DNA from: an uncultured Candidatus Saccharibacteria bacterium
GTDB taxonomy: Bacteria; Patescibacteriota; Doudnabacteria; UBA920
Assembly (NCBI GenBank): GCA_964384035.1
Contig: CAYLIB010000001.1
Span: 48,532-112,531, forward strand
Length of the DNA stretch: 64,000 nucleotides
Direction of reading: 5' to 3'
Below, piece by piece: positions 42,106 to 64,000 of this stretch (position 1 is the first letter of the stretch; every line of letters begins with the position of its first letter). The notes beneath the pieces are model-generated. The model searched no databases. It was not told where the DNA came from and saw only the letters and a list, made by a program, of their open reading frames with translations. Both the position numbers and the translations under genes were made by a program.

Positions 42106-42486
42106 ATGTCACCTAAATCCTCTATATTAATAACATCTTTTTTTGCACTTTTAGCCTTCGCCACTATAGAGAATCAGATCCTAGCTTTTGTAGGGGAAAA
42201 CACTCCAAACACCCCAGAAGTAGCCGGTGCTAGTATTGGTGCAATTGTTGAACCTACCCCCTTAAACACCGGTTGGGAGGAACTCAGAAAAGAACAAGAA
42301 AAGCTAAAAACTGAAAAAGAAAAAATAGAAGCTAGTAAAAGTTCTTTTACCAACTTCTTTGAACCCACAGAACGAAGTATTCGCTATCTATATATATTCC
42401 TATTCGTCTTCTTCTGCCTAGTTGTTATCAATCTCTTGCTCGACTTATACATCCTAAAATCCCAAAAGCGCAAAACTCATGCGTAA
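42106..42486 (+). CDS. hypothetical secreted/membrane protein with coiled-coil and C-terminal TM
   Basis: Signal peptide, 'ELRKEQEKLKTEKEKIEASK', C-terminal helix YLYIFLFVFFCLVVINLLL. Confidence 0.4.
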   Translation: MSPKSSILITSFFALLAFATIENQILAFVGENTPNTPEVAGASIGAIVEPTPLNTGWEELRKEQEKLKTEKEKIEASKSSFTNFFEPTERSIRYLYIFLFVFFCLVVINLLLDLYILKSQKRKTHA

Positions 42487-45031: not shown

Positions 45032-46156
45032 ATGTTTCAAAAGTTAAAAAGCAAACAAATAATTAAAGTTTCCAAAATTGTTGTAGCAGCACTTGTCCTT
45101 GGTATATTTGGTCTCCAACCCGCACCCGTAAACGCTGCTTCACTAACAACTGTAAAAGATACCCTTACCAGAATCGAACAAGCCCAAACCGCAGACCATA
45201 CAATAACATTTACACTCCCAGGTGGAGCCTCAAGCTTCGTAGCTGGCGATAAAATGTCCATTGACTTCCCAGCAAACTTCGTAACCTCAACGGGCTGGGC
45301 AACCTCAGATTTCACCTTTAACGACGGTACTTCAAGAACCATAACCACAGTAGGCACCAACTCTACTCCTACCTGTACGGCTGGTACTAATAATGTTTCT
45401 GTAGAAATTACAACAGCAAGCGACCTATTTGTAATTACCGCCTGTTCTACCTTCACAGCAAACTCATCAGCCAACATTACATTCACCATTCAAGGTACTG
45501 GCGCTAACGGAACCCTCACGAACCCTTCTTCTCCTGAGACTTCCGTAGTGGCAATAGTAGGTGATGATAAAGGAAACGGGTTCGGTTCAGACGACGACAC
45601 CGCTTCCCTAGCTATCCCAATCATCGCAGACGATACAGTTACAATTACAGCTACCGTGGACCCAACTATTACCTTCTCAATATCAGATACAGCTATTTCA
45701 TTTGGAACCCTGTCTTCGGGAGCTGCGCGGTACGCTACTGGAGACGGAACCAGTACATCTACTGACCCCTCTGGTGGTGCTCACAACCTACAAATCTCTA
45801 CCAATGCCACCAGCGGTTACATCGTTACTTACAAAGGTGCAACACTAACCAGCGGAGCTAACACTATCGATGTTCCAGGTACATTCATAAACAACGACGC
45901 CAACGGTACTCCAGGACAAGAAGAATTCGCTCTTTCTGTAAACAGACAAACCGGTACCGGTACGGTTGCCGCCAACTACCAATACACCGACCCAGACTGG
46001 GACTTCGACGCCAACACTACCACTACCATTTACACCCAAACCGCAGCAACCAACACTGAAACTCTAGAAATTCACTACCTCGCTAATATAGCTGGCGCTA
46101 CTCAAGCTGGCACCTACACCACAGACGTTACTTACATAGCTACTGGAACGTTCTAA
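45032..46156 (+). CDS. secreted beta-rich surface protein, paralog 1
   Basis: Signal peptide with AxA site (PVNA/AS). T/S/G/N-rich. C-terminus '...GTYTTDVTYIATGTF'. The last 565 nt are identical to 47946-48510. Confidence 0.55.
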   Translation: MFQKLKSKQIIKVSKIVVAALVLGIFGLQPAPVNAASLTTVKDTLTRIEQAQTADHTITFTLPGGASSFVAGDKMSIDFPANFVTSTGWATSDFTFNDGTSRTITTVGTNSTPTCTAGTNNVSVEITTASDLFVITACSTFTANSSANITFTIQGTGANGTLTNPSSPETSVVAIVGDDKGNGFGSDDDTASLAIPIIADDTVTITATVDPTITFSISDTAISFGTLSSGAARYATGDGTSTSTDPSGGAHNLQISTNATSGYIVTYKGATLTSGANTIDVPGTFINNDANGTPGQEEFALSVNRQTGTGTVAANYQYTDPDWDFDANTTTTIYTQTAATNTETLEIHYLANIAGATQAGTYTTDVTYIATGTF

Positions 46157-46164
46157 ATACATTC

Positions 46165-46190
46165 AAAACCGCCCATAAGGGCGGTTTTAT
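46165..46190 (+). terminator. rho-independent terminator
   Basis: aaaaccgcccataagggcggttttatt. Confidence 0.55.
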
Positions 46191-46233
46191 TATTCCTCAT
46201 GTTATAATTCCCTTAGAATATTTTACTTAACCA

Positions 46234-47295
46234 ATGCCTAGCTCTAAATTCTTCGTTATTCGTATATTCTCTCTATTCGTTATTCTCTATTCGTTACTCT
46301 TCATTCCACGCGAAGCTAGCGCCCTTACCATATCTCCTCCCAGATTAGAGACCTCGGCAGACCCAGGTCAAACAATAGAACAAGAAGTAAAAATCATCAA
46401 TGAAGAAAGATCCTCACGAACACTCTATATTGTTCCTCAAAACTTTGAAGCCAAAGACGAAAGCGGAGAACCAAATTACGTCGAAGGCACAGAAAACCTA
46501 GCCGGTTGGATAAAAGTAGCAAAATCAGTAAATCTCGGACCAGGTGAAGAAAAATTTGTAAAATTTTCTATTTCGGTTCCACCCACTGCTGAACCTGGTG
46601 GATATTTTACAGCTCTATTCTTCCAAAGTGAACCCCCTAGCTTTGAACAAGGTGCTGGTATTGGTATAGGTAGCCAGTTAGGAAGTTTAATTCTTTTAAA
46701 AGTTAATGGTGCTATAGGAGAGCAAGCGGGTATACTCGAATTTGCTACTAAAAACAAAGATCGCACTTTCTTAAATCTACCTATAGAATTCTACTACCGT
46801 TTCCAAAACACAGGAGACACGTGGGTTAAACCTTTAGGTGAAGTCTTTATAACAAACACATTCGGAAAAAGAGTAAAACTCCTTACAGCGAACAGGCAAA
46901 AAGGAAATGTGCTACCCAAAAGCATTCGCAAATTCGAAACTGCATGGTTAAATAGCGGTGGAAATATAAAGGAAGACCCAAAAGGTGAAATTGAATACCC
47001 AAAACTAGAAGATTTCTGGGCAAATGTAAAATATCAATATAGCAATTTCGCTTTCGGACTCTACACTGCCAAACTCCATTTAGCTTACGGCACAAATCCT
47101 GTGCAGGTAGGAGAAACAACTTTCAAATTTATCGTATTTCCTTGGCAGCTCACATTAGTAAGTACCATTCTCGCCATAATTATCTTAATTATTCTGAGAA
47201 TACTTATTAAAAAATACAATCAAAGTATTATTAGAAAAGCCCAAAATCAAATTCAAAGTAAAGACAACCCTACTTCCAAACGAGGTAAAAAATAA
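46234..47295 (+). CDS. CscA/DUF916-DUF3324-like cell-surface protein with C-terminal TM anchor
   Basis: Signal peptide, 'ALTISPPRLETSADPGQTIEQEVKIIN', C-terminal TM with K/R tail (WQLTLVSTILAIIILIILRILIKKYN). Confidence 0.45.
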   Translation: MPSSKFFVIRIFSLFVILYSLLFIPREASALTISPPRLETSADPGQTIEQEVKIINEERSSRTLYIVPQNFEAKDESGEPNYVEGTENLAGWIKVAKSVNLGPGEEKFVKFSISVPPTAEPGGYFTALFFQSEPPSFEQGAGIGIGSQLGSLILLKVNGAIGEQAGILEFATKNKDRTFLNLPIEFYYRFQNTGDTWVKPLGEVFITNTFGKRVKLLTANRQKGNVLPKSIRKFETAWLNSGGNIKEDPKGEIEYPKLEDFWANVKYQYSNFAFGLYTAKLHLAYGTNPVQVGETTFKFIVFPWQLTLVSTILAIIILIILRILIKKYNQSIIRKAQNQIQSKDNPTSKRGKK

Positions 47296-47390
47296 AATAT
47301 AAAAAACACCAAATAGTTCTTTGGTGTTTTTTAAAAATTAAAAAATAATTTTATGTTATACTTTTTCTATAAAACAACTTTATAAATTCC

Positions 47391-48509
47391 ATGTTAAAGC
47401 TTCTAAACAAAAATCAAAAAATAACAAAGTTAGTTATCACTGCATTAATCCTCAGCGTGTTTGGTCTCCAACCTTCACCCGTAAACGCTGCTTCACTAAC
47501 AACTGTAAAAGACACCCTTACCAGAATCGAACAAGCCCAAACCGCAGACCATACAGTACAATGGACATTACCCGGCGGCGCATCTAGTTTCGTTGCTGGA
47601 GATAAGGCAAGAGTAGATTTCCCGGCAAACTTTGTTACTAGTACAGAATCGGGTTGGGTAGCCGGAGACTTCACGTACAACGATGGTACCTCAAGAACTA
47701 TTGTAGCAGTGGGAGCATCACCGTCATGTTCTGCAGGTGCCAACAATATTACTGTCCAAATAGACTCTGCTAATGACCAATTTATTATCACAGCCTGCGC
47801 TTCCTTTACCGCTAACTCCTCAGCTAATGTTTCATTTACTATAGACGGAACCACAACAGACGGAACCCTTACAAATCCTTCTTCCCCAGAAACATCCGTG
47901 GTAGCTATCGTCGGTGACGATCAGGGCGACGGCTTCGGAAGCAATGACGACACCGCTTCCCTAGCTATCCCAATCATCGCAGACGATACAGTTACAATTA
48001 CAGCTACCGTGGACCCAACTATTACCTTCTCAATATCAGATACAGCTATTTCATTTGGAACCCTGTCTTCGGGAGCTGCGCGGTACGCTACTGGAGACGG
48101 AACCAGTACATCTACTGACCCCTCTGGTGGTGCTCACAACCTACAAATCTCTACCAATGCCACCAGCGGTTACATCGTTACTTACAAAGGTGCAACACTA
48201 ACCAGCGGAGCTAACACTATCGATGTTCCAGGTACATTCATAAACAACGACGCCAACGGTACTCCAGGACAAGAAGAATTCGCTCTTTCTGTAAACAGAC
48301 AAACCGGTACCGGTACGGTTGCCGCCAACTACCAATACACCGACCCAGACTGGGACTTCGACGCCAACACTACCACTACCATTTACACCCAAACCGCAGC
48401 AACCAACACTGAAACTCTAGAAATTCACTACCTCGCTAATATAGCTGGCGCTACTCAAGCTGGCACCTACACCACAGACGTTACTTACATAGCTACTGGA
48501 ACGTTCTAA
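47391..48509 (+). CDS. secreted beta-rich surface protein, paralog 2
   Basis: N-terminal half is about 60% identical to paralog 1. The C-terminal 188 aa are identical. Confidence 0.55.
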   Translation: MLKLLNKNQKITKLVITALILSVFGLQPSPVNAASLTTVKDTLTRIEQAQTADHTVQWTLPGGASSFVAGDKARVDFPANFVTSTESGWVAGDFTYNDGTSRTIVAVGASPSCSAGANNITVQIDSANDQFIITACASFTANSSANVSFTIDGTTTDGTLTNPSSPETSVVAIVGDDQGDGFGSNDDTASLAIPIIADDTVTITATVDPTITFSISDTAISFGTLSSGAARYATGDGTSTSTDPSGGAHNLQISTNATSGYIVTYKGATLTSGANTIDVPGTFINNDANGTPGQEEFALSVNRQTGTGTVAANYQYTDPDWDFDANTTTTIYTQTAATNTETLEIHYLANIAGATQAGTYTTDVTYIATGTF

Positions 48510-48578
48510 AAAAACTAAAAGAGCTTTTGCTTAATGCAAAAGCTCTTTTGTTTTATTTCTACGTGTTAAAATAATCTT

Positions 48579-49676
48579 ATGCGTAACAAAATTTTATCTT
48601 CTATCTACTTATTCATCTTTATTTTTTCCTCCTTTTTTGGAGTAGCCAACGCACAAACACTGAATTCTACCAACTACAACCTAGAAAACTCGTCGTTTAA
48701 TTTCGGTGGCGAAGAAAGCAGCTCAACAAACTATAAATCGCAAGACTCAGTAGGTGACGCAAACGATTCAGGCTCAAGCTCTACGAATTACAAAGTCTTT
48801 CCTGGTACAATACAGCCCGTATATCCAGGTGTACCGGGTATACCAACCTTAACCAATACAGGTGGCACACTTTATAACTCCCTCGACTTTGTGGTCACAG
48901 AAGGCCCCGGAAACGCAAGCGACGTACTGTATGCAATAGCAATCTCGGACGACAACTTCACTACAACCTATTTTATTCAAACAGATGACACATTAGGAGC
49001 TAGCGCAGTTTGGCAAACTTATACCAACTGGGGAAGCGGAACTGGTGAAAGAGTTACGGGTCTTAAAAGCAACACCACTTACAAAATAAAAGTAAAAGCC
49101 CGCTTCGAAGCCGATACAGAAACCCCTTATTCTGTTGAAGCCAGTGCCGCTACAGCCAATCCTTCAATCTCAGTTAGCTTTGCTGGAATATCCAGCAGCA
49201 CCAGCGTAGAAGGCCAAACAACAACTATCACATCTACCGCAACAACTGTCCCCTTTGGCACTCTTATTGTAAGCACCCCCGCCGTAGGTGCTCAGAGAAT
49301 AACAGTTAGCACAAACGCCGTTAACGGATACACAACAACTATCCAACAAAACCAAGACCTGACCCAAGCTCAAAGCAAAACCATAGACGGCGTATCCGGC
49401 ACCAACGCCTCCCCCTCCAGTTTTCCCGGAAGTGTTTCTCGTGGAGCGTTTGGTTACCACACTAGCGACACTACTCTATGCACTGGCACTACTGGAAGGT
49501 TTACTGCTGACGACACTTACGCAAAAATAACCACCACAGCGCTAGAAATTGCCTGTAACACAGGAACAGCCTCAAGCGAACAAACTGACATAGTATACAA
49601 ACTTCTAATTGGACCCCTACAAGAAAACGGCGCCTACACAAACGACGTAACATTCATAACCACTGGCACCTTTTAA
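48579..49676 (+). CDS. secreted beta-rich surface protein, related family (C-terminus '...GAYTNDVTFITTGTF')
   Basis: Signal peptide, T/S-rich, shares the C-terminal TGTF motif with the paralogs. Confidence 0.5.
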   Translation: MRNKILSSIYLFIFIFSSFFGVANAQTLNSTNYNLENSSFNFGGEESSSTNYKSQDSVGDANDSGSSSTNYKVFPGTIQPVYPGVPGIPTLTNTGGTLYNSLDFVVTEGPGNASDVLYAIAISDDNFTTTYFIQTDDTLGASAVWQTYTNWGSGTGERVTGLKSNTTYKIKVKARFEADTETPYSVEASAATANPSISVSFAGISSSTSVEGQTTTITSTATTVPFGTLIVSTPAVGAQRITVSTNAVNGYTTTIQQNQDLTQAQSKTIDGVSGTNASPSSFPGSVSRGAFGYHTSDTTLCTGTTGRFTADDTYAKITTTALEIACNTGTASSEQTDIVYKLLIGPLQENGAYTNDVTFITTGTF

Positions 49677-49741
49677 AAAAATAACGCAATAAAAATCTCG
49701 GCACACCGAGATTTTTATTTTCATCATGTTAAAATGAATTC

Positions 49742-50776
49742 ATGCGCATCTCTAAATTCTCCATTAGTCATTCGTTACCTGTCCTCCGTAGCTTCAGCGT
49801 AGGAGGATTCGTCATTCTTTATTCTCTATTCGTCATTCTCTATTCACCATTCCCTAAAACTACTTTCGCCCAGTCAACATTGCCGACCGAAAAACCCTAC
49901 CTAAGCCAAAACGCCCTCTCCATAGCACCGTTTATAATCGAAGAGAGCATGGAAAAAGGACAAACAATAGAAAAAGAAATAGAAATTAGCAATATAGGAG
50001 ACGTCCCACTACCCCTAAGTCTCAGTATCAACGACTTCATTCCAGTAGATAAAGAAGGCCATGTCCGCTTTCTTTCCGAGGAAGAAAAAAAAGATGACAG
50101 ATTTTCTCTCTCTCACTGGATCACAATCACGGAACAACCTGAATTCAACATCAAAGCACTAAGCAAAACAAAAGTAAAATTCAAAATTACCGCCCCCGTC
50201 TCGGCTGAACCAGGAACTCATTATGGTGGTTTATTATTTGGCTACGAACCAACAGTCCAAAATATTCCTGGAACGAAAGTAAAGCAGAAACTCGGCGCAC
50301 TTGTGATCATTACACTAGGCAAAGCTAAAGAGCAGGGAGAAATAAGCGGGTTTTTAGTAAACCAAGACTGGAAATCTAAAAGTATATTGGAATTCTCAAC
50401 AATATTTAAAAATACAGGGAGAAGTAGAGTAATTCCTAAAGGAGAAATAGAAATAAGAAATTGGTACGGAAAAATTATCTCAAGTAGCCACATAAACGTC
50501 GACGGTTCGATTGTACTTCCAGAAACCGAACGAAACTTCGTTACTAAATTGGAAAAACCCTTTTTATTAGGCTATTATACAGCAGAGAGTTTTGTACAAT
50601 TTGGTAATCCTAAACAAGAAAAAAGGGTAAAAATGAGCTTCTGGGTACTACCAGTAAAACCCATAATTTCTGTCTTAGCTTTTATTTCACTATTCACCCT
50701 AAGTCTATATTTTGGCCTCAAACGTTACAATCGCTGGCTAATAAAAAAAGTCGGCTTAGAAACTAAAAACCAATAA
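49742..50776 (+). CDS. CscA/DUF916-like cell-surface protein with C-terminal TM anchor
   Basis: 'LSIAPFIIEESMEKGQTIEKEIEISNIGDVPL' plus a C-terminal TM and basic tail. Confidence 0.45.
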   Translation: MRISKFSISHSLPVLRSFSVGGFVILYSLFVILYSPFPKTTFAQSTLPTEKPYLSQNALSIAPFIIEESMEKGQTIEKEIEISNIGDVPLPLSLSINDFIPVDKEGHVRFLSEEEKKDDRFSLSHWITITEQPEFNIKALSKTKVKFKITAPVSAEPGTHYGGLLFGYEPTVQNIPGTKVKQKLGALVIITLGKAKEQGEISGFLVNQDWKSKSILEFSTIFKNTGRSRVIPKGEIEIRNWYGKIISSSHINVDGSIVLPETERNFVTKLEKPFLLGYYTAESFVQFGNPKQEKRVKMSFWVLPVKPIISVLAFISLFTLSLYFGLKRYNRWLIKKVGLETKNQ

Positions 50777-51891
50777 TGTCTTTAAAATTTAAACCCAAGT
50801 TTTTCCGCATATTTCTAGTTTCCCTACTTGTTACTATTCACTTGTTACTTTTTACTAGCAACACTAAAGCGTTGACCGTCTCCCCCGTTCGCTTAGAGCT
50901 TAGCGGAGACGCAGGAGATACCGTATTCGGAAACTTCAAACTCTTCAACGAAAAGGATGAAAATTTAAAATATTTCATTGTTTTCCGAACCTTCTCTGCA
51001 AAAGACGAGACTGGGGAACCCAATTTCCCGGATACCCAAGATGAATTCATATCATGGGTAAATGTCTCTCCGGAAGTAACCGTACCAGCAAAAGACTATA
51101 AAGAACTTACATTCAAAGTAAATATCCCCAAAAATGCAGATCCGGGTGCTCACTTTGCTGCGATATTCGCTTCCACAGTTCCCCCAAAAGATGGCGAAAA
51201 TTCATCAAACCTAAAAATAACAGGCGAAGTTGGTACTTTAATTCTTTTCCGAGTAAACGGTGATTTCAAAGATGGCGCGGACATATTAGAATTTAATACC
51301 AAAGATAAAAAAAACAGCTTTACAGAATTACCAGTTTGGTTCTACTACCGCTTCCAAAACAGTGGTAATAACTACATAAAACCCCTTGGCGACATAATTA
51401 TAAAAAATTTCTTCGGGGGAACAAGCAAAGTAATTCCAGCCAACCGAGATAAAGGCAACATCTTACCACAAAGCGTTAGACGATTTGAAGCAGCATGGTG
51501 GGAAGGAAGTGGTGCAAAAAACCAAAGCCCAGATTTTAAAGGTTATAGTGAACCACAAACATTCTTAGAGCATGTTTCTCACCAATGGAACAACTTTGCC
51601 TTCGGAAAATACACCGCAACCCTCAACCTAGCATATGACAAGTCTACAGACAAAGCCGCCACAGCAACAATAAGCTTCTGGTTAATTCCTTGGCATCTAT
51701 TATCAGTTATAGCAGCAGTAGGTACAGTATTCTTTGGCGGAATTATTTTCATAGCTATCGTCATTGCCGTATTCTTTATGAAAATTCAAGACAAAAAGCC
51801 CAAGAAAAAGAAGAAAACTACAAAACCAACAAGAAAAAAGGCTATTCCAGTCGCAGAAAACGAAGACTCAAAACAAGATGAACAGAATTAA
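50776..51891 (+). CDS. CscA/DUF916-like cell-surface protein with C-terminal TM anchor and poly-Lys tail
   Basis: 'ALTVSPVRLELSGDAGDTVFGNFKLFN', 'GTLILFRVNG', 'WFYYRFQNSGNNYIKPLG' (shared with the 46234 protein), TM + KKPKKKKK tail. Confidence 0.45.
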   Translation: MSLKFKPKFFRIFLVSLLVTIHLLLFTSNTKALTVSPVRLELSGDAGDTVFGNFKLFNEKDENLKYFIVFRTFSAKDETGEPNFPDTQDEFISWVNVSPEVTVPAKDYKELTFKVNIPKNADPGAHFAAIFASTVPPKDGENSSNLKITGEVGTLILFRVNGDFKDGADILEFNTKDKKNSFTELPVWFYYRFQNSGNNYIKPLGDIIIKNFFGGTSKVIPANRDKGNILPQSVRRFEAAWWEGSGAKNQSPDFKGYSEPQTFLEHVSHQWNNFAFGKYTATLNLAYDKSTDKAATATISFWLIPWHLLSVIAAVGTVFFGGIIFIAIVIAVFFMKIQDKKPKKKKKTTKPTRKKAIPVAENEDSKQDEQN

Positions 51892-52184: not shown

Positions 52185-52376
52185 ATGACAAGTTTGCCAA
52201 GCAGACTCATCACTTTGAAGCAAGCATGCGAACTTCTAGGCGTCCACCCAAATACCCTACGTAATTGGGAAAAGGAAGGGAAAATTGCCAGCATCCGCAT
52301 CGGCACCCGCGGCGATCGTCGTTACACCGAAGACACCTTGCTCAGGGTTATGAATAACCAACCAGTTACAGCTTAA
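52185..52376 (+). CDS. small HTH DNA-binding protein of the excisionase/MerR-like (HTH_17) type
   Basis: 'ITLKQACELLGVHPNTLRNWEKEGKIASIRIGTRGDRRYTEDTL'. A perfect palindrome ttgtcttatttaagacaag at 52154-52172 lies just upstream. Confidence 0.5.
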   Translation: MTSLPSRLITLKQACELLGVHPNTLRNWEKEGKIASIRIGTRGDRRYTEDTLLRVMNNQPVTA

Positions 52377-52607: not shown

Positions 52608-55600
52608 ATGGGAGAAAATAAAATTAAACAACTTTTGACTTCAGTCCAAAAGCCTGGAAGCCTCGTGCTACTGGCCGTACTTTTGTTTGGTTCTATTTTC
52701 CCCCAAAGCTTCGCTCTCCCTGTAAAAACTGCCGAAGCTGCAACTGGTGTCCCACTTCAAATAAACTTCCAAGGAAGATTAACTCTTGCAACAGGTGCTG
52801 TTGGTACAAACGTTGCTAATGGTACCTACGCCATGCGTTTCAAACTCTATGACGCACTCACTTCCGGAACCCTACTCTGGACAGAAACCTACGACCAAGC
52901 ACCAGTAGACCCATGTCAAAAAGTTCAAGTTACTGCCGGAGTATTTAACGTAAAACTCGGATCTTGTGCAACTTTAAGCGGAGTAGATTTCACAAGCGAC
53001 AGCCTATACCTATCGGTAGACTTCGCACCAACCGGTACTAGCTACGACGGTGAAATGTCCCCAAGAAAGCGTTTAGTTTCCGCTCCTTACGCAATAAACG
53101 CAAATAACTTAGCGGGAAACGGTAAAATAGACCTCACCAACACAGCAACCACCACAACTCCGTTCAAACTAACTGCAAATACTCTCACCACAGGAAGCGG
53201 ACTTACTCTGACCACAACCACCAATTCCGCAGCAAACACCGCTTGGACAGGTGCTACGCTTACCTTTAACAACGCACAAGCTTCTACTGCTGTATCGAGC
53301 GGTTCTATTGCTGGTCTAGACATTCAGTTCAACCAAAATACTGCCATCGCTGGTAACACCGAAACCGCTGCAAGAATAAACGTAAAACAAAATGACTCTT
53401 CTTCCACAGACGCAACTGTAGCTTCTCTCTTAGACCTCGCCAACAACGACACCGCTACAGGAAACCAAATAACAGTTTCAGATGCATTGAAAATTACAGG
53501 GAGCAATGTTACCAACGGCATTAACCTTTCAGGAACCTTTGCAAGCAATCTTATTACCTCAACAAACTTCACAGTAGCTCAGAGTGGGCAAATAACATCA
53601 GCTAACTTAGGTGGAAGCGGAACCCAGTGTTTGCAAGCTAGCAACACCGGTGTAATTTCTGGTACTGGCGGCGCTTGCGGCGGTACCACCACCCTCCAAT
53701 CAGCCTACGGTAACGACGTGGACGGAAGCGACACCACCATCTCCCTTACCACAGCCGACGATTCAGTAATAATAACTAACCCATCTTCTTCTGGAACTGA
53801 CTCAACTTTCGTGCTCAAAGTCGACCAAGCCGCAAGTGGCGCAGTCGATTCACTTATTGTAAACAACGCAGGCACCGGAACCCTTGCCACCTTAGACGCT
53901 TCTAACGCTTCTGGTAACGGTGTTTCCATAGATGTTCAAAGCTCTTCATCTTCCCAATATGCCCTAAAAGTAACCAGCAACAACGGCTCCACCAATGGCC
54001 TATACGTTAGAGCCGATGGAAACGTAGGTATAGGAACCACCAGTCCAACTCAAAAATTATATGTTGCTGGTGATGCATTAATAGGTAACACAGGTACCGG
54101 AAAATTATACTTCGACGATACAAATGGTTGGATTGCCAGAACCGCCGCTGGTAACACACTCCAATTCTCACCAAGTGGAAATGCTACTTCAATGTCCCTT
54201 ACTTCAAGCAGATTACACGTTGGATCCGACCCCGCCACAACTGGTTATACCGCAAACTTTTTCGTCATAGGTGCCAACGCTGGTTCTGGTGGTGCACAGC
54301 AGACCATCTGGTTTGGAGCATCTGCCAGGGGTGGAAATACAGGTAGTGGACACAACACCGTGCTAAGCGGTGGCGCGGGGTCTACTGCCACAACCGGTTC
54401 AATTGGTGGGAATGTTAATATTTACGGCGGCAACGCAAATGGAACAGGCGACAATAATGGTGGATCAATCTATTTAGACGGTGGCACAGCAACAGGCACA
54501 GGAACCGCTGGTAATATTTTACTAGCATCAACTACCGGTAAAGTCGGAATTGGAACATCTTCTCCATCTGCACTCCTTCATGTACAGAAAGACAATATCG
54601 GTAGCACTTCCACAGACGGTGAAGCATTGGTAAACAGTACCGCAGCAGGAGTCGGAGCACAACAATTCTCACCACGACTTCGCTTCACTGGCCAAGGCTG
54701 GAAAACAAACGCTACCGCCGCAAGCCAAACAGTCGACTGGGCTATAGAAAACCAGCCAGTTCAAGGAGCTGCCAACCCTTCAACAAATTTATCTTTTAAC
54801 TACCAAATAAACGGTGGAGGATATTCAAACATCCTAACCTTAACTTCCGGAGGGGTAATTGGTACCGACGCTGTTTCAACTGCGAATGCAAGTTTCGGTG
54901 TTATAAATTCTAGTGCCCTCAGAACCGGTATGAAAATTTCGAGCGATGATATCTATTTTACCCAAAACAGTTCCGACAAACTTCGCTTGTTAAACGGAAT
55001 TGGTATAAGAACACGTTCTGACAACTATTTTGGATGGAGCTCAGGAGCAGACGTCTCTTCAGCAACCGACTTATTCCTAAGAAGGAATGCTGCAGCAAAT
55101 CTCGCTCTGGGAGCAGTAGATGCTGCATCACCAGTGGCACAAACCATCTCTGTTCAAAACGTCTCTACAGGCACAAGCGACACCGCAGGGGCAGCATTAA
55201 GTATTGCCGGCTCTCAAGGGACTGGTACCGGTGTTGGTGGTTCCATCCTCTTCAAAACGGCACCAGCTGGATCCACAGGTTCTTCTCAAAACGCCCTAAC
55301 AACAGCCATGACAATATTAGGCAGTGGGAAAATCGGAATAGGTACCACCACTCCGTCAGACCTATTGGATGTAAATGGCGCAATTAACTCTACTGCACTA
55401 ACCATCAGCCAAACTTCTCCCTCCTCAACCAACAGATACATAATAGGTAACAGTAACGGTTTTGCACTACGAAGCAACATTAGCTACGGATGGGGCTCTG
55501 GATCGGGAGATGCTGGTGGCTCAAAAGACACCGGTATCTCTCGTGGAGCTGCAAACACCGTCTACATTGGAAACGGTACTGGTGGGGACTCAAGTGGTAC

Positions 55601-58600
55601 TTTAGTTGCAACAAATATAGGAATTGGATCCACTTCTCCTGGTTCCAACCTAGATATCGACAGAGCAGACGCATCTTCTATAACAGCAGAACAAATTCTC
55701 TTCAGAAGCAACAACACTGCACAAACCCTAACAGATGGAACAACAATAACAAATTGGAGAAACAATCAGTTCCTAGCTCCTACCATAAATGGCGTGGCTG
55801 GGGGAGGCACTGAAACAGTTACCAATGCTGCTACGTTATATGTAGATAACGCTCCCGCAGGTAGCAACATTACAATTACTAACCCATATGCTCTCTGGGT
55901 AGATGAAGGCGCAGCAAGATTCGACCGTGAATCTATTGGCACCACCTCAACTGATGGCATAATTCTACAAAACAGCACCGCAGCAGGCGCAGGTGCACAA
56001 CAATACTCCCCAAGAATCCGCCTTACCGGCCAAGGTTGGAAAACAGATGCTACGGCCGCAAGCCAAACCGTAGACTGGATAATGGAAGCTCGCCCAGTTC
56101 AAGGCGCAGCAAATCCTACTGTAAACTTAGCAATCCTCGCCCAAGTTAATGGTGGTGGTTATACAAGCGCAATTGCCCCAGGTCAAATACTTGCACCAGG
56201 AGGAGCCTCCACTTCTCAAGCCGCACCTCAATATTCAGCAATAAACAACTCAGCCTATGGACTTAAGATAGGAGGAGGAAACGCCGGTAACGCAGTTGCA
56301 CTCGTTGGTAATAACACTTCTTACTTAAATATCGATGCAAATGTAAACGCCATTGGTATAAAATCAAACGCCACACTACGATGGGGTGCAGAAAACTTTG
56401 GCACTACCCAAGTATCCCTCTCTTCTCCCTCGAATGACAACCTATTGCTTAGAGACTCAAGTGTTACTGGTCCAGGTAACTTTATCATCGGTTCAACCTC
56501 AACTTTACCAGGCACCTCTGGAAAAGGTGTGTTAGTGGTTGGATTAGGCACTGTACCAACATCCTCACCAGCCGATATCTTCCAAATATATGCAGCAGAC
56601 TACGCTGCCGGGGATACTCGTGCTTTCTTAAGAACAGAATCCGGTACTGCACAAATAATAGGAAACAACTCTATTGGAACTGCGCCTTCAACAGGCACAG
56701 ATACCGCTGGAACAAACTTCAGTCTTTTCGGTGGCCAAGGAACAGGTACTGGAATAGGTGGTAATGTAGTTCTACAAGCAGCTTACCCAAGCACCACTGG
56801 CTCTACTGCAAATTCACTCACAGATGTATTCACAATACTCGCTTCCAACAAAGCAACATCTGGCACTCAAAACTTAGTTTCTATAACTCCGACTGTAAAC
56901 CAATCCTCCACTGCTGCATACAATGCTCTATTAGTAAACGTAACCGAAACAGCAACGGGTAGTGGTGCAAAAAACCTTCTTAAATTACAAGTTGGTGGCA
57001 CAGATAAATTTAACGTAAGTAACTCCGGCGTAATCACTTCTAGCTCACTCGCAGGTGGTGGAACTTTATGTTTACAAACCGATAACAATGGTGTCATATC
57101 TCCCGCTGCATCTGCCTGTGGATCAGCCTCAACCACCCTCCAATCAGCCTATGGGAACGACGTAGATGGCTCAGACGCAACCATTTCTCTTACCACAGCA
57201 GACGACTCCATAATAGTAACCAACCCATCTTCCTCTGGCACAGACTCTACCTTCACTTTCAAAATCAACCAAGCAGCTTCTGGTGCTGTAGACGCTCTCA
57301 TCATAGACAATGCAGGAACTGGCACACTTGGCACCTTTGACGCCTCAAACGCCTCTGGCAATGGTATATCTATAGACGTACAAAGCTCCTCTGCCTCTCA
57401 ATATGGTTTAAGAGTAACGGCAAACAATGGTGCTACCAATGCACTATGGGTAGGCGGCGATGGCAGGGTTGGTATTGGTGATGTAAATCCAGCAAGTCTC
57501 TTCACCGTAGGATCTGGAGATTTGTTCCAAATAAATACCACAGGTCAAATAGGTTCCCAGCAAGCCCCACTCTCTGACTATCTTTTCGCACTTGCAGGTA
57601 CCACAGGCAACGACAACAGCAGAATCATAGATATAACTCAGGAAAATGATGAAGTAGAAGATTCAACTGTAATTAATATAGTCAACACAGCCAATGCAGG
57701 CACAATTGCCTCTGGTGCTACAAGAAATATTAAAAATATTTACACCTCACTTACGCCAACTATAACTTTTAGCACTACTGGCGTACAGGCTTCTGCCAAT
57801 ATTTACGGAGCTGACAACAATGTTTCTTTAGCAAATGTAAGCATACCCAATGTTCCCACGTCGAGAAGCAGGACAGTCAACTCTTATGGTAGTAGCTCAA
57901 CGGTAAGTGCAGGTATTACACTTAACGACACCAATGGTGGTTCGACGATTACCCTTAATACATATGGTACATACGGAGCCGTGACCGCAAGTCCCACTTT
58001 AACAGCATTGTCTACATCCACAAACGCTACCTATGCCGCAGGTTATTTTAATAACACTTTAAGCTCAGCGGGAAATGCCTTTTTTAATCCTGGAGCCTTT
58101 GGCATTATAGCTATAACAAATGGAAATTTAACCACCACTGGCGGTACTTCTCATACGGGTGGATATTTTGATGTTGGTGGTACAGCAGTAAACAATTACG
58201 GTATTCAAATTAACAGTGTAACAGCAGCTACAAACAACTACGGATTATATATGGATAGTATTGCCTCTGCTGCTTCTAACTATGCCATATACTCAAACGC
58301 TGCCGCTCAAAGCTATTTTGCAGGGAATATAGGTATCGGTACCACCGTCCCAGATTCTCAATTACACATTGGTGCTACCACAGGCTCTCTAACTACTAGT
58401 ACATCTATAAATATAAGCAAAATAAACTTCGCATCTGCCTCTACCATTGCAGGTTCCGGTGCTCAAATCTATGGACAGTTCATAGATATGTCCAACATTA
58501 CCGGTGCTGCCGATACCGCCGTAGTAGCCAGCGCAAAATATCTCCTTCCTAGTCAAACAAACTCTACTATCAATGCGTACAATTACGTAGGCGCAACAGT

Positions 58601-61600
58601 CAGTGGCGGAACATTAACCATGAACAACGCCAGTGGTGCACTCAATTACACAGGCTTCCAAAACACCAGTCCAGCAATTGTTGGTACGAACGGTAGTGTC
58701 ATTGCAAACGGATTCAAAACCACCAATGGCACAGTTACAACTACCGGCACTCAGGCTGGTCTAGATATCACCACCAGCACCATTACAACAGCTGGAAATC
58801 AATATGGTGTTAATGTAAACGCTGTAGGTATTGGAGCTGGTACTCTTAATGCTCTAAAAATTTCTAACATCACCGCAGGTGCAGGTACTGAAAACGCTAT
58901 TCAAATCGGTACAGGTTGGGACAAGCAAATAAATGGTAATGGTTGGAATGTGGATGGAAGTGGTAACCTAACCGTAACCTCATGTACCGGTTGTGGTGGT
59001 GGTTCAGGCTCACTAGACAGCATTACTGCGGCAACAGCGGACGACACCAACAACGACAATACCAACAAGCAAATCGCTTGGGATTGGTCTACACCAACCA
59101 CACAAACTGCATTTAAATTACAAAACACAGGAACAGGGCTTACCTCTGGCTCCATCTTCAATGTATCTTCCGCAACAACCAGCACTGTCGCAACCAACGG
59201 TATTGTTTCTTTGAATGCTTCTGGTAACTACACATCTACTTCAAATGTTGGATTACTTCAAGTCGCAGCAAACGCCACTACAGCTGGAACCGTAGCAAAG
59301 TTCAGCGGTACTGCACTTACTACTGGTACTGGAGTATTCATGCAAGGTGGTACAGCCATGACCACAGGTTCAGTACTACAATTAGCAAGTACAACCTACA
59401 ACCACGGCAACGCCACAGAAACCGGTAACCTTCTAAATATAGCTTTCACCGACGCAACCAATGGTACTGCTACCAGCACAACCAACGGTATAAACATTAC
59501 CCCAACAATAAACGTTACTACTGGTGCAAGTGGAGCTAAAACAATAAACGGCATAAAAATAAGTGCACCAACCCTAACAGCATGTACCGGCGGTTCAACT
59601 TGTACCTATGCAGGATTAAATGTAGATACTTCCGGCACACTTGCAAACACAACAATCTATTCAGCCTTATTTAGTGGTGGCAATGTGGGTATTGGCACTA
59701 CAGCCCCAACCCAAATACTCCACGTACAAAATGGCTCAGAGTTTATTAATCTTACAAGCTCCTTTACTCCAACCACTCTCGCAGGTGGGTTCGACACAAG
59801 TGGACAAAACATAAACACTGTCTTCGTTGCTGGAAAATACGCCTTCATTGGTCAATCCACCAACGCCGGCACCTGTTCCGGCACTACAGTTACCGGTTGT
59901 GAATTTAGCATTTGGGACATCCACAACCCAAACAACCCACTCGCAGTAAGCGGAGTAAACATTGCAAGTACGGTTAAGACAATATATGTTTCTGGCAAGT
60001 ACGCTGTCATTGGTCGTATAGCAGATGCTGGTACCTGTACCACCAGCACCATTACCGGTTGCGAACTTATGATCTACGACATAACCAACCCAAACAGCCC
60101 AAGCCTTCTCTCTGTAGATGGTGGCTTTAACCAAGACATTAACTCCCTGTTCATTCAAGGCAAACTTCTCTTCGTCGCCTCCAACACCGACAACTCCACT
60201 GGTACAGAACTTAAAATTTACGACCTCTCTAACCCAACTACCCTTGCAGTTATCGGTAGCATAAACACAGCAGACGCTACATCTGGTGAAGGTGCAATAA
60301 AATCTGTTTACGTTCAAGGTCGTTATATGTACTTAGGTCTTTCCTCCACAACTGGTACCGGTTGTACCTCTGGCGATGCTACTAGTTGTGACTTCAGAAT
60401 CTACGACATTAACGACCCATTTAACCCAACCTTCAAAGGTGGTACAAACCCTGGCACAGACGTAAACGCAGTTTCAGCAAACGGCAAATATGCTTACGCA
60501 GGTTTCGCTTCTGTCTCTGGAAACGACTTCCAAATCTATAACATCGCCGACCCAACCGCTCCAACAGCGACAGCAGGAAGCGATCTTTCTACCGGTGTCT
60601 TAACACTTCAAATTCAAGGAAAATACGCTTACATTGGTAAAACTTCAGCAAGCGGTAACGACTTCCAAATACTAGACATAACCGACCCAACCGCAACCCC
60701 AGTAAACGCCGGCGGTAGCGACATAACCTTCGACGTAAAATCTGTGTTCATCTCCGGAAAGTACGCATACATTGGTATTGCAAACACAGCAGACACCGCA
60801 AAAGAATTAAGAGTTCTAGATATTGCCGGAGTAGACACCCCAACCATAACAACCGGAAACGCTGGTATAGGTAACCTTCAAGTAACCGACAACGCACGCA
60901 TAGACAGCGACCTCCACGTTGCCGGTAGCATAAACGTTGGTCTTGGCGGTATCCAAAGCAGTGGCCCAATCTCCATAGAAAACACCCTCCAAGGCAACAG
61001 TAGTGGTAACGGCGTAGCTGGTATCTACGGTAACTACACCTTCAACAACACAACCAGTTCAGTCTTCCAATACGGCAACCGTTTCATTTCCAACATAACC
61101 GCAGTAGAAGACAGCAACGTAGACTCTACATACATTGGCCAACTCATCCGTATAGTAGACACCGACTGTGATACAGGTGCTACTACCCTAGACTGTGACA
61201 ACACAGTAAGAGGTCTCGAAGTCCAAAGTTGGACCGGCAACAACACCGCAGGTACCAACACCGCTATTGCCGGTTTCGGTAAAACCTTCGGTCTCCAGGG
61301 TACAACAGACGCCCTAGCCGGTGGTGTAAGCCAACCAGCCGCAGTCTTCGCAGATCTAGATAACGGTTCCGCGGCCACAGTAGGTAACGCTATCCGCGCC
61401 TATACCGACAACGCAACAAGCGCAGACTTAGTAAGCTTCTACCAAGAAACCACAGCATACACAGGAACTGGTTTACTTATGAACTTCGGTAACAATTCTG
61501 GTTCCTACTCGGGTAACTTCATTGACTTACAAAAAGCAGGCTCCAGCAAGTGGAAAATAAATTATGATGGTACAAAAATTACTCAGACCATCTCGCCAAC

Positions 61601-63047
61601 CGGTAGCATCATCGACTTCGCTTCAGCCACCAACGGCAATACTTTCATCTGGAAAGTCCCACAAAAAGCCACTACTGGTACCTGTGCCACCGCAACCGCA
61701 GAAGGTATGATCTTCCAAAATACTGGTGGTACCCAAGTCGGTCATATCTGTATCGACGGTCCTACTTCTGGTACCCCTAACAAGCTCCGCTTCTACGCAG
61801 AACAGTTCAATGCAACTTCTACTGACTTAGCAGAAAATTATAGCGATGTAGCGGGTAAACTAACCCCTGGTGATGTCGTTTCCTTCGACTTAAACCAAGA
61901 CAAAGCAATAGTCCAAGCAAACGCAGAAAATTCCGAAAACCTAGCTGGTATTATTTCTACCGCCCCTGGCCTCTTGCTCACAGACGCAAGCGAAGACGGT
62001 ACCCCAAGTGAACTCGTAAATCCAAAACCTCTCGCAATTTCCGGACGTGTTCCAGTTAAAGTTACAGACGAAAACGGAATAGTTAAAAAAGGTGACTACC
62101 TCACTCTTTCTCTTACAAAACCAGGCTTCGCAATGAAAGCTACTAAAGCAGGTACCGTACTCGGCCAAGCCATTAGCGATAGCAAAGACGGTTACGCAAC
62201 TGTATTCGTAAACCTAACCACTTGGAACGGCAAAAAGAGCGGTCTTCCTAAACAAAAGAGCCTCACAGGGGAAGTTAAAATCCCAACCGACTTACTAAAG
62301 GAGCTGTCAGAAGATAACTCAGATTACCTATCCGAAATATTCACCGACAGAGTCGTTGCAAGAGATGTAGTCTCCGACACTATTTCTACCAACACCCTCT
62401 CTGTTGCTTCACTGAAATTCATAGAAAAAGACGGTCTCTCACTCGACAACGCATTCATTATGAAGGGCGGACTCAAAGTCGACTCTATTACTTCTATTAC
62501 CGATCTAATCAAAATAAATTCCGATGTCGAATTCATTGGTACCCCATTCTTCAACAAAGACACTGCAGGTTTTGCGCGTATCATCGCTGGTACAAAAGAA
62601 ATTCGCGTTGAATTTGAAAAAGAATACTTAGTTAAGCCAATTGTTACTGCCAACCTAAGCTTCGAAAGAGACGAAAACACAAGAGAAGACGACCAGATCA
62701 AAAACGAGGAACTAGACGTCCAAGCTGCATTTAGTGGAGTACAATTTGTAATCATCAATAAAAACACCAGAGGCTTTACAATTTTACTCAACAAGAAAGC
62801 CCCTCGTGATCTTAGTTTTAGCTGGATAGCTCTCGCCGTTAAGGACGCCACAACCTATGTAAGCAAAGATCTCACAGCAGAAGAAAAAGCTCAAGAACAA
62901 GCACTCGAACAAACCCAAGATAAGCAAACAGTTAATACAAACGAGGACATCCAAACAGATACCACCCAAATAACTAATGAAAATCCAGATCAAAACGAAA
63001 AAACAAAGGTCGAAACTAAGGAGGAATCAGAAACAACAAAACAATAA
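52608..63047 (+). CDS. giant secreted surface protein (3479 aa) with duplicated modules, phage-tail-fibre-like 'VGIGT' repeats and an LVIVD-repeat beta-propeller region
   Basis: Signal peptide. More than 7 'xVGIGTxxPxxxLxV' motifs. Two about 500-aa modules are internally duplicated (…LQSAYGNDVDGSD.TISLTTADDS…). About 8 LVIVD-type blades (KYAYIGxxxxxGNDFQIxDIxDP). K/E-rich C-terminal tail. Confidence 0.8.
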   Translation: MGENKIKQLLTSVQKPGSLVLLAVLLFGSIFPQSFALPVKTAEAATGVPLQINFQGRLTLATGAVGTNVANGTYAMRFKLYDALTSGTLLWTETYDQAPVDPCQKVQVTAGVFNVKLGSCATLSGVDFTSDSLYLSVDFAPTGTSYDGEMSPRKRLVSAPYAINANNLAGNGKIDLTNTATTTTPFKLTANTLTTGSGLTLTTTTNSAANTAWTGATLTFNNAQASTAVSSGSIAGLDIQFNQNTAIAGNTETAARINVKQNDSSSTDATVASLLDLANNDTATGNQITVSDALKITGSNVTNGINLSGTFASNLITSTNFTVAQSGQITSANLGGSGTQCLQASNTGVISGTGGACGGTTTLQSAYGNDVDGSDTTISLTTADDSVIITNPSSSGTDSTFVLKVDQAASGAVDSLIVNNAGTGTLATLDASNASGNGVSIDVQSSSSSQYALKVTSNNGSTNGLYVRADGNVGIGTTSPTQKLYVAGDALIGNTGTGKLYFDDTNGWIARTAAGNTLQFSPSGNATSMSLTSSRLHVGSDPATTGYTANFFVIGANAGSGGAQQTIWFGASARGGNTGSGHNTVLSGGAGSTATTGSIGGNVNIYGGNANGTGDNNGGSIYLDGGTATGTGTAGNILLASTTGKVGIGTSSPSALLHVQKDNIGSTSTDGEALVNSTAAGVGAQQFSPRLRFTGQGWKTNATAASQTVDWAIENQPVQGAANPSTNLSFNYQINGGGYSNILTLTSGGVIGTDAVSTANASFGVINSSALRTGMKISSDDIYFTQNSSDKLRLLNGIGIRTRSDNYFGWSSGADVSSATDLFLRRNAAANLALGAVDAASPVAQTISVQNVSTGTSDTAGAALSIAGSQGTGTGVGGSILFKTAPAGSTGSSQNALTTAMTILGSGKIGIGTTTPSDLLDVNGAINSTALTISQTSPSSTNRYIIGNSNGFALRSNISYGWGSGSGDAGGSKDTGISRGAANTVYIGNGTGGDSSGTLVATNIGIGSTSPGSNLDIDRADASSITAEQILFRSNNTAQTLTDGTTITNWRNNQFLAPTINGVAGGGTETVTNAATLYVDNAPAGSNITITNPYALWVDEGAARFDRESIGTTSTDGIILQNSTAAGAGAQQYSPRIRLTGQGWKTDATAASQTVDWIMEARPVQGAANPTVNLAILAQVNGGGYTSAIAPGQILAPGGASTSQAAPQYSAINNSAYGLKIGGGNAGNAVALVGNNTSYLNIDANVNAIGIKSNATLRWGAENFGTTQVSLSSPSNDNLLLRDSSVTGPGNFIIGSTSTLPGTSGKGVLVVGLGTVPTSSPADIFQIYAADYAAGDTRAFLRTESGTAQIIGNNSIGTAPSTGTDTAGTNFSLFGGQGTGTGIGGNVVLQAAYPSTTGSTANSLTDVFTILASNKATSGTQNLVSITPTVNQSSTAAYNALLVNVTETATGSGAKNLLKLQVGGTDKFNVSNSGVITSSSLAGGGTLCLQTDNNGVISPAASACGSASTTLQSAYGNDVDGSDATISLTTADDSIIVTNPSSSGTDSTFTFKINQAASGAVDALIIDNAGTGTLGTFDASNASGNGISIDVQSSSASQYGLRVTANNGATNALWVGGDGRVGIGDVNPASLFTVGSGDLFQINTTGQIGSQQAPLSDYLFALAGTTGNDNSRIIDITQENDEVEDSTVINIVNTANAGTIASGATRNIKNIYTSLTPTITFSTTGVQASANIYGADNNVSLANVSIPNVPTSRSRTVNSYGSSSTVSAGITLNDTNGGSTITLNTYGTYGAVTASPTLTALSTSTNATYAAGYFNNTLSSAGNAFFNPGAFGIIAITNGNLTTTGGTSHTGGYFDVGGTAVNNYGIQINSVTAATNNYGLYMDSIASAASNYAIYSNAAAQSYFAGNIGIGTTVPDSQLHIGATTGSLTTSTSINISKINFASASTIAGSGAQIYGQFIDMSNITGAADTAVVASAKYLLPSQTNSTINAYNYVGATVSGGTLTMNNASGALNYTGFQNTSPAIVGTNGSVIANGFKTTNGTVTTTGTQAGLDITTSTITTAGNQYGVNVNAVGIGAGTLNALKISNITAGAGTENAIQIGTGWDKQINGNGWNVDGSGNLTVTSCTGCGGGSGSLDSITAATADDTNNDNTNKQIAWDWSTPTTQTAFKLQNTGTGLTSGSIFNVSSATTSTVATNGIVSLNASGNYTSTSNVGLLQVAANATTAGTVAKFSGTALTTGTGVFMQGGTAMTTGSVLQLASTTYNHGNATETGNLLNIAFTDATNGTATSTTNGINITPTINVTTGASGAKTINGIKISAPTLTACTGGSTCTYAGLNVDTSGTLANTTIYSALFSGGNVGIGTTAPTQILHVQNGSEFINLTSSFTPTTLAGGFDTSGQNINTVFVAGKYAFIGQSTNAGTCSGTTVTGCEFSIWDIHNPNNPLAVSGVNIASTVKTIYVSGKYAVIGRIADAGTCTTSTITGCELMIYDITNPNSPSLLSVDGGFNQDINSLFIQGKLLFVASNTDNSTGTELKIYDLSNPTTLAVIGSINTADATSGEGAIKSVYVQGRYMYLGLSSTTGTGCTSGDATSCDFRIYDINDPFNPTFKGGTNPGTDVNAVSANGKYAYAGFASVSGNDFQIYNIADPTAPTATAGSDLSTGVLTLQIQGKYAYIGKTSASGNDFQILDITDPTATPVNAGGSDITFDVKSVFISGKYAYIGIANTADTAKELRVLDIAGVDTPTITTGNAGIGNLQVTDNARIDSDLHVAGSINVGLGGIQSSGPISIENTLQGNSSGNGVAGIYGNYTFNNTTSSVFQYGNRFISNITAVEDSNVDSTYIGQLIRIVDTDCDTGATTLDCDNTVRGLEVQSWTGNNTAGTNTAIAGFGKTFGLQGTTDALAGGVSQPAAVFADLDNGSAATVGNAIRAYTDNATSADLVSFYQETTAYTGTGLLMNFGNNSGSYSGNFIDLQKAGSSKWKINYDGTKITQTISPTGSIIDFASATNGNTFIWKVPQKATTGTCATATAEGMIFQNTGGTQVGHICIDGPTSGTPNKLRFYAEQFNATSTDLAENYSDVAGKLTPGDVVSFDLNQDKAIVQANAENSENLAGIISTAPGLLLTDASEDGTPSELVNPKPLAISGRVPVKVTDENGIVKKGDYLTLSLTKPGFAMKATKAGTVLGQAISDSKDGYATVFVNLTTWNGKKSGLPKQKSLTGEVKIPTDLLKELSEDNSDYLSEIFTDRVVARDVVSDTISTNTLSVASLKFIEKDGLSLDNAFIMKGGLKVDSITSITDLIKINSDVEFIGTPFFNKDTAGFARIIAGTKEIRVEFEKEYLVKPIVTANLSFERDENTREDDQIKNEELDVQAAFSGVQFVIINKNTRGFTILLNKKAPRDLSFSWIALAVKDATTYVSKDLTAEEKAQEQALEQTQDKQTVNTNEDIQTDTTQITNENPDQNEKTKVETKEESETTKQ

Positions 63048-63449: not shown

Positions 63450-64000
63450 ATGACAAATAAATTACTTAAATACTCTAAATTTTTGGCCGCTGGACTCATA
63501 GCAGCTCTAGTATTTACTCTAAATTTCGCAAATTTCAACAATAACCTAAAAACACCGATCGCATCTGCCGCCGCAGTCGACTATTACCTACAAATAGACG
63601 GCATAGACGGCGAAAGCACAGATGCCCAACACAGAAATCAAATAGAAATCCTCAGTTTTTCATGGGGACAAAGTAACCCAGGTATAACCAACCAAGCTTA
63701 TGGTGCAGGATTTGGCGGTTCCGGCAAAGCAAATTTCCAAGATATCAGCTTCACATCAAGCGCCAGCAAAGCCAGTCCAAAACTAATGCTCGCCGCAGCA
63801 ACTGGCCAACACATAAAAAGCGCCAAACTTTTTGTAAGAAAAGCAGGCGAAAGACAACAAGATTTCTATAAGATCGAACTTCAAGATGTGTTAGTTAGTT
63901 CTTACCAAGCATCTGGCCAGGGAGGTAGCATCCCAACCGACAGCTTCTCCCTAAACTTCACCAAAATCCAGTTCGAATACTCGCCACAAGGCGCAGACGG
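63450..64000 (+). CDS. Hcp (T6SS tube protein)-like protein with N-terminal signal peptide; 3' end beyond window
   Basis: After 'FLAAGLIAALVFTLNFANF...ASAAA' the sequence 'YLQIDGIDGESTDAQHRNQIEILSFSWGQS...GKANFQDISFTSSASKASPKLMLAAATGQHIKSAKLFVRKAGERQQDFYKIELQDVLVSSYQ...LNFTKIQFEYSPQGADG' aligns along its length with Hcp1 (FIKIGDVKGESKDKTHAEEIDVLAWSWG...LTIRKAGGENQVEYLIITLKEVLVSS...NFAQVQVDYQPQKADG). Confidence 0.7.
   Translation, partial: MTNKLLKYSKFLAAGLIAALVFTLNFANFNNNLKTPIASAAAVDYYLQIDGIDGESTDAQHRNQIEILSFSWGQSNPGITNQAYGAGFGGSGKANFQDISFTSSASKASPKLMLAAATGQHIKSAKLFVRKAGERQQDFYKIELQDVLVSSYQASGQGGSIPTDSFSLNFTKIQFEYSPQGAD

Follow-up and report, generated by a model that had tools for sequence, protein, structure and literature searches.

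A giant protein of a Doudnabacteria-like genome combines a variable stalk with a phi29 gp12-type chaperone fold and belongs to a large family of Patescibacteria

The receptor-binding protein gp12 of Bacillus phage phi29 (PF11962, PDB 3GQH/3GQ7) carries a C-terminal domain that acts as an intramolecular chaperone and is cut off once the trimer has folded (PMC3357383, PMC9863714), so that residue 691 is the last of the mature protein, gp12* (PMC6542822). Tail fibres with an S74 chaperone, such as the endosialidase of phage K1F and pb1 of phage T5, are organized as an attachment domain, a long stalk, a globular head, a short stalk and a C-terminal chaperone. Here we describe a gene whose product shares this organization, located at positions 52608..63047 (+ strand) of a 64,000-nucleotide stretch of DNA (the window) from an uncultured Candidatus Saccharibacteria bacterium assigned to the Doudnabacteria (assembly GCA_964384035.1, contig CAYLIB010000001.1). 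The giant protein is a variation on a known design, that of a fibre with a C-terminal intramolecular chaperone, rather than a system of a new kind, and it is an unexceptional representative of a very large, unannotated family of Patescibacteria. We propose, with a probability of about 0.6, that a Doudnabacteria-like cell secretes it and displays it at the surface as a fibre whose design follows that of phage tail fibres or tail spikes, trimerised through a chaperone-like domain (module A), probably cut, and recognizing the surface of a host.

The gene is real and correctly delimited. Read from the most upstream start, the frame contains 3479 codons and a stop codon, with no internal stops, and the identical product of 3479 amino acids (aa) is encoded on a 16.6-kb contig of JGI 3300005002 and in the Logan assembly of SRR12487045 (15.5 kb), which are independent assemblies. 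The unbroken 10.4-kb open reading frame (ORF) reported in the original prediction, which had been made from the letters of this stretch, is thus confirmed. Searches of NCBIfam, PHROGs and PDB sequences with the whole protein gave no matches.

We searched for homologues with the last 440 aa, and found 89 proteins, all annotated as 'hypothetical'; every organism-named match was from Patescibacteria, except one labelled Nanoarchaeia. When mapped onto the protein, the matches resolve two separable conserved modules, A (aa ~3073-3210) and B (aa ~3285-3425). Module A (61824..62237, + strand, as are all parts of the gene described below) adopts the fold of the gp12 C-terminal domain. In an AlphaFold2 (AF2) model of the C-terminus, built on 49 sequences, it has a predicted local distance difference test (pLDDT) score of 88-98, and a Foldseek search of BFVD with it ranked a 'Preneck appendage protein' first (E=2.4e-9), with many fibre proteins of phages after it. 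The structural relatives closest to module A are all obligate trimers.

Module A opens with the block 'DLAENYSDV…PGDVVSFDL' (aa 3073-3096). The original prediction correctly pointed to its conservation near the C-terminus, which is strong in homologues, and missed that an intramolecular chaperone of the phage type, whose DxAE motif is invariant, begins here and that an H-type-lectin fold comes after it. The family consensus DlAE (here DLAE, D3073…E3076, 61824..61835) aligns onto W690-S691-D692-F-A-E695 of gp12, with D3073 corresponding to D692 and E3076 to E695. D692 and E695, next to the scissile bond, are taken to be the catalytic residues of gp12 (MEROPS family G2). Among 59 aligned copies of module A, the motif is almost without exception: D3073 in 58 of 58, A3075 in 58 of 59 and E3076 in 58 of 59. 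Since gp12* ends at residue 691, the DxAE motif sits exactly at the position at which gp12 is cut, between S691 and D692 (position taken from PMC6542822, PMC3357383 and PDB chain boundaries). The corresponding putative autocleavage site of the giant protein lies between T3072 and D3073, with the upstream side ending in …FNATST and the downstream side beginning with DLAENYSDVAGK. As in gp12, the receptor-binding protein of phi29, the domain sits towards the C-terminus of a long chain rich in beta structure. The giant protein differs from gp12 in being cellular, secreted and five times longer, and the cleavage and ATP-dependent release known for gp12 are both putative here. It also differs from S74 tail fibres, as its chaperone has the gp12 (G2-like) fold; Peptidase_S74 (PF13884) had no match in the giant protein, searched whole or in tiles, and no Ser-Lys dyad motif was present.

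Module A is followed by a linker of two short helices modelled at low confidence (aa 3211-3284, 62238..62459), by module B (aa 3285-3425, 62460..62882) and by a hydrophilic, acidic tail that, judging from its sequence, is probably disordered (aa 3426-3479, 62883..63044). Module B has the beta-sandwich fold of H-type lectins in the AF2 model (pLDDT 81-98), and Pfam H_lectin (PF09458) matched 17 of 49 homologous copies, with a best E of 3.6e-6. The copy in the giant protein itself falls below the Pfam threshold, which distinguishes it from described members such as Helix pomatia agglutinin (HPA), the C-terminal domain of discoidin I and SLL-2; its position after a putative cleavage site likewise has no known counterpart.

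The opposite end of the protein has the features of a secreted chain. The only hydrophobic segment of the whole protein lies within the first 60 aa (Kyte-Doolittle, KD, 2.1), and an AxA motif, kept in homologues, immediately precedes the first domain; the predicted Sec-type signal peptide would thus comprise aa 1-44 (52608..52739), with cleavage after …LPVKTAEA and before the next A. The first domain (aa 48-171, 52749..53120) is an Ig/FN3-like beta-sandwich, confidently modelled by AF2 and common to about 40 family members. The 20 cysteines of the protein all fall in ten close pairs, none beyond aa 3048, as would be expected of an extracellular protein whose disulfides form locally. The proposal of a fibrous adhesin in the original prediction fits the signal peptide, the ten Cys pairs and the lectin-like domain, as well as the lack of enzyme or membrane domains in the protein; display at the surface and a role in adhesion are probable.

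Between the Ig-like domain and aa 2375 runs a variable mosaic stalk of about 2200 aa (aa 172-2375, 53121..59732), rich in T, G, A, S and N and low in charge, for which there was no family match in whole-protein searches of Pfam, NCBIfam and PHROGs or in Pfam tiles. The stalk contains seven copies of a GIGT motif: NVGIGTTSPTQKLYV (aa 472, 54021..54065), KVGIGTSSPSALLHV (aa 645, 54540..54584), KIGIGTTTPSDLLDV (aa 908, 55329..55373), NIGIGSTSPGSNLDI (aa 1003, 55614..55658), RVGIGDVNPASLFTV (aa 1620, 57465..57509), NIGIGTTVPDSQLHI (aa 1907, 58326..58370) and NVGIGTTAPTQILHV (aa 2359, 59682..59726). All seven motifs quoted in the original prediction, which counted at least that many, are therefore present. 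The pattern used, [NKR][VI]GIG[TSD]xxP, is expected 0.0004 times from the composition; one match was seen in 9 of 20000 shuffles, and more than one in none. Only about 15 residues are conserved in an alignment of the seven sites, with unrelated flanks, and we therefore regard GIGT as a recurrent short junction motif rather than a long repeat unit. The PTR-like repeats that had been suggested were not found, as PF12789 had no match to the whole protein at E<=1 or to tiles at E<=5.

The suggested kinship with tail fibres, in contrast, was supported by several lines of evidence in addition to the gp12-type C-terminal domain. Of the 120 homologues listed for the GIGT region (query aa 245-700), 20 have Peptidase_S74 at the C-terminus ('tail fiber domain-containing protein'), and Mtd_N or Gp53-like_C is present in others. 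The GIGT motif of the giant protein also occurs in bacterial S74 proteins, some of which have its N-terminal domain as well, as in homologue P0135, where this domain is combined with S74. Tiles of the protein gave weak matches to tail-fibre families of PHROGs (phrog_18345, E=1.5e-4). A sub-threshold tile match to the XM1_gp53 minor capsid protein (E 1.5e-3) is attributable to a shared fold. Other sub-threshold tile matches, including DUF3244 and PROPPIN, were dismissed as noise.

Parts of the stalk are duplicated. As found by BLASTP of tiles, aa 245-514 (53340..54149) and aa 1381-1653 (56748..57566) are copies of one module, with 63-68% aa identity, rising to 79% over the best 116 aa; aa 625-809 (54480..55034) and aa 1066-1260 (55803..56387) are copies of another, with 46-53% identity; and a third, weaker pair is formed by aa 817-971 and 1319-1484. 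At the DNA level the duplicates are about 70% identical. The duplications noted in the original prediction are thus real, but they are diverged rather than near-identical (79% for aa 350-475 versus 1505-1630, and 57% for aa 685-765 versus 1125-1205). Modular evolution of length is directly supported by comparison with a related species, which has an orthologue at the syntenic position (P0249, locus L083, GCA_964434195.1; 2709 aa). The flanks and the ends of the two genes are colinear at 79-90% DNA identity, and most 80-aa tiles of the protein ends are 85-98% identical, whereas the central 5.8 kb shows only scattered, out-of-order matches; the orthologous stalk is 770 aa shorter and non-colinear with that of the giant protein. 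Change in length through modules, as had been predicted, is thus borne out by this pair.

Beyond the stalk, aa 2402-2755 (59811..60872) consist of LVIVD repeats, matched by Pfam PF08309 with E=5e-9 and 35.8 bits against a gathering cut-off of 20.2. The predicted LVIVD region is thus confirmed, with seven units, which are self-similar, and not the roughly eight blades first counted; a Cys-x7-Cys loop is present in three of the seven, and the region presumably forms a seven-bladed beta-propeller. It resembles LVIVD-repeat beta-propeller surface proteins in having seven units above the Pfam cut-off, and differs from them in that the units are embedded in a long fibre. To our knowledge, PF08309 has no established function. 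A propeller also forms the head of the K1F endosialidase. The approximately 300 aa that separate the propeller from module A (the pre-chaperone region, aa 2756-3072, 60873..61823) had no family match in the tile search and are conserved in P0019, P0026, P0027, P0001, P0288 and P0294.

The giant protein is not a one-off, a fact missed by the original prediction. A profile covering both modules matched 30857 clusters (formed at 50% identity) with E<=1e-3; with E<=1e-30 the number was 7442. Most of this family of about 31,000 clusters is from Patescibacteria, and many members are 2000–4900 aa long; the top matches reach 4899 aa, and the two modules are C-terminal in every one of them. A scan of genomes with the module-A alignment detected at least 554 loci, overwhelmingly in Patescibacteria, with complete ORFs of 2400-3200 aa and several that outrun the 10-kb flank. 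One of them, L043 (3161 aa), shows the full architecture, with the N-terminal domain, seven GIGT motifs, LVIVD, and modules A and B. Neither Pfam nor NCBIfam has a name that covers the family, and our literature searches found no description of it. Some members contain two copies of module A per chain, each with its own DxAE (P0043, P0048, P0049, P0054; L068, L074, L065, L022 and L066); if both sites were cut, multi-step processing would be implied.

On the proposed trimeric surface fibre, the Sec signal peptide would be removed to leave a chain composed of the Ig-like domain, a stalk of reshufflable modules joined by GIGT motifs, the LVIVD propeller, the pre-chaperone region, module A, the lectin-like domain and the tail. 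Module A would set the register and trimerise three chains from the C-terminus, as in phi29 gp12, after which folding would spread towards the N-terminus and cleavage of the T3072|D3073 bond would probably ensue. Once mature, the fibre, probably attached through its N-terminal Ig-like domain and bearing the propeller head near its tip, may use its variable stalk and this head to recognize glycans or the cell surface of the host bacterium of the epibiont.

Several observations weigh against this proposal. In sequence, module A bears a weak resemblance to gp12, which was the best match of the family profiles in the PDB, at E 0.06-0.11. Peptidase_G2 (PF11962) had no match to module A of the giant protein in tiles at E<=5, and it matched 2 of 49 family members weakly (best E 5.9e-3). 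The fold of module A also occurs in phage decoration proteins that stay uncleaved, so the fold alone is no proof of cleavage. Unlike in gp12, module A does not form the C-terminal end, as 269 aa follow, including the lectin-like domain, which would be lost on cleavage. Module B of the giant protein itself had no match to Pfam H_lectin at E<=0.1, and its sugar binding is putative. A check of hydrophobicity and motifs over the whole protein identified no cell anchor, with neither a C-terminal transmembrane segment nor LPXTG. Finally, an AF2 monomer model of aa 40-700 resolves the N-terminal domain alone and leaves aa 172-700 unstructured (pLDDT 40-50), which speaks neither for nor against a trimer; this model is compatible with an obligate oligomer, and equally with a thin alignment.

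On the cut between T3072 and D3073 the evidence points both ways: the invariance of DxAE argues for it, while conservation of the downstream lectin-like domain argues for retention of the C-terminus or for a role of its own. It is possible, though we consider it somewhat unlikely, that module A is a permanent, uncleaved trimerisation node, similar to beta-tulip decoration proteins and to the uncleaved C-terminus of the P22 tailspike, in which case a trimer of H-type lectins would form the distal, sugar-binding tip of the fibre. H-type lectins work as trimers, with sites at subunit interfaces (as in HPA). In the 80 genome loci over which locus statistics were taken, module A is followed by 130-560 aa in 78, and by module B in at least 43; to discard all of this would make little sense. 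The chaperone domain of P22 is likewise kept (PMC3357383). However, the DxAE motif falls precisely where gp12 is cut and is kept in all but one of the aligned copies, and catalysis is the easiest explanation for such conservation at a domain boundary. In addition, a minority of family members, for example P0070, P0072, P0083, P0086 and P0089, stop directly after module A, which also argues against a permanent node.

The remaining alternatives are all much less likely than a trimeric surface fibre. The protein could be a monomeric giant adhesin of the beta-solenoid type, or be associated with an S-layer, its phage-like C-terminal domains being borrowed binding modules with no part in fibre assembly. 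The composition and the modular duplication do resemble those of giant bacterial adhesins, and an oligomer is not indicated by the AF2 monomer model. The same model, however, shows no solenoid; the obligate trimers among the closest relatives of module A, and the proteins elsewhere in which the N-terminal domain and the GIGT stalk are joined to S74, a chaperone for trimerisation, also speak against a monomer, which we regard as improbable.

A true tail fibre, encoded by a prophage or a tailocin, would explain the phage-type chaperone and the tail-fibre-like motifs, and a gene for an Hcp-like (tail-tube-like) protein is indeed found two genes downstream. This origin is nevertheless highly improbable. 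The giant protein has a Sec signal peptide and, taken whole, no PHROG match; the Hcp-like protein carries a signal peptide as well; genes for capsid, portal, terminase, sheath and baseplate are all absent nearby; and the flanks consist of housekeeping genes and a cluster of WxL/DUF916-like genes that is syntenic across species. The gene is cellular rather than viral, since the contig also carries gyrA, infB (IF-2), tyrS (TyrRS), yidC, a class A penicillin-binding protein (PBP1A) gene and ten tRNA genes, and its GyrA is 76-78% identical to GyrA of Candidatus Doudnabacteria. Because GyrA points to Doudnabacteria-like Patescibacteria, the label 'Saccharibacteria' on the closest loci was not adopted as the taxon of the window. 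An assembly artefact, for which the repeats inside the gene might be cited, is the least probable explanation of the length and the duplications: the copies share only about 70% DNA identity, the longest exact repeat in the gene is 20 nt, the two independent assemblies are concordant, and complete homologues of 2400-4900 aa are common, so the concern about assembly that accompanied the original prediction did not hold, and such an artefact is very unlikely.

The cluster upstream of the giant gene (45032..51891, + strand) encodes, in alternation, three secreted proteins of the WxL-like type and three DUF916/WxLIP-like proteins with a membrane anchor (PF06030, E=1e-7). Its homologues adjoin module-A genes in at least 10 of the 80 loci. 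L083 matches the arrangement here on both sides, with the WxL/DUF916-like cluster upstream and a small ORF and the Hcp-like gene downstream, and in L043 the order DUF916-like gene, helix-turn-helix (HTH) gene, giant gene is the same as upstream here. The cluster resembles the Csc (WxL/DUF916) clusters of Firmicutes: its three secreted proteins terminate in …TYIATGTF or …TFITTGTF, two of these (45032-46156 and 47391-48509) are paralogues with 85% identity, and its DUF916/WxLIP_PGBD-like proteins have a membrane anchor at the C-terminus. Directly upstream of the giant gene, within a 717-bp gap, lies a 63-aa ORF of the HTH_17/MerR type (52185..52376, + strand), which may be a local regulator; its counterpart in L043 has the same position and 57% identity.

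The Hcp-like gene (63450..64000, + strand; PF05638, T6SS_HCP) is cut off by the edge of the window, and its association with the giant gene is uncertain. The protein has 202 aa and an N-terminal signal or membrane segment; a complete copy is present in L001 (15063-15671), and the copy in L083 (18537-19145) has the same position relative to the giant gene. A secreted Hcp is odd in a genome of Patescibacteria with no visible type VI secretion system (T6SS). The window also contains, at 28589-28665, a tRNA-Ile with anticodon TAT, as called by ARAGORN; this anticodon is uncommon in bacteria, where AUA is usually read by a modified CAT anticodon. Further upstream of the giant gene, a secreted protein (42479-44014) whose domains include CHB_HEX_C, Fn3_assoc and dockerin has a 315-aa neighbour (44025-44972). 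Homologues of the two are found together, on the downstream side of module-A genes, in L007, L063, L077, L047, L073 and L040, and L042 matches the dockerin region only. A dockerin-domain protein was reported to be essential in a Saccharibacterium (PMC10633639). Further giant ORFs lie near the fibre gene in L083 (21300-28130, at least 4517 aa, with PATR repeats) and in L043 (11331-17435, 2034 aa), and very large surface proteins seem to be concentrated at these two loci.

How ultrasmall, host-dependent Patescibacteria recognize and hold their hosts is largely unexplained, and beyond type IV pili few candidate adhesins have been named (PMC10633639, PMC11665869). The giant proteins of Omnitrophota (bioRxiv 10.1101/2023.11.21.568195) and the adhesins of Saccharibacteria (PMC10633639) are similar to the present family in being very large, secreted, multi-domain proteins of ultrasmall or predatory organisms with a proposed role in cell-cell contact, and differ from it in domain content; the words 'tail fiber' and 'fiber' do not appear in either paper, and 'chaperone' and 'lectin' have other meanings there. 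In the family described here, the N-terminal domain is conserved, the stalk and head are hyper-variable, and the C-terminal assembly module is of the phage type. It is tempting to speculate, although we consider it unlikely as a complete account, that Patescibacteria took over a self-cleaving chaperone of the gp12 type for giant cellular fibres, in which the cut at DxAE would be a maturation switch that frees or repositions a trimeric lectin, and a propeller-tipped fibre would be docked on the WxL/DUF916-like complex. If so, the reshufflable stalks and heads would set the host range of the epibiont in the way that receptor-binding proteins do for phages. If the fibres match their anatomy, they would be strong candidates for determinants of host specificity in Patescibacteria, and a clear case of cells using a phage assembly mechanism.

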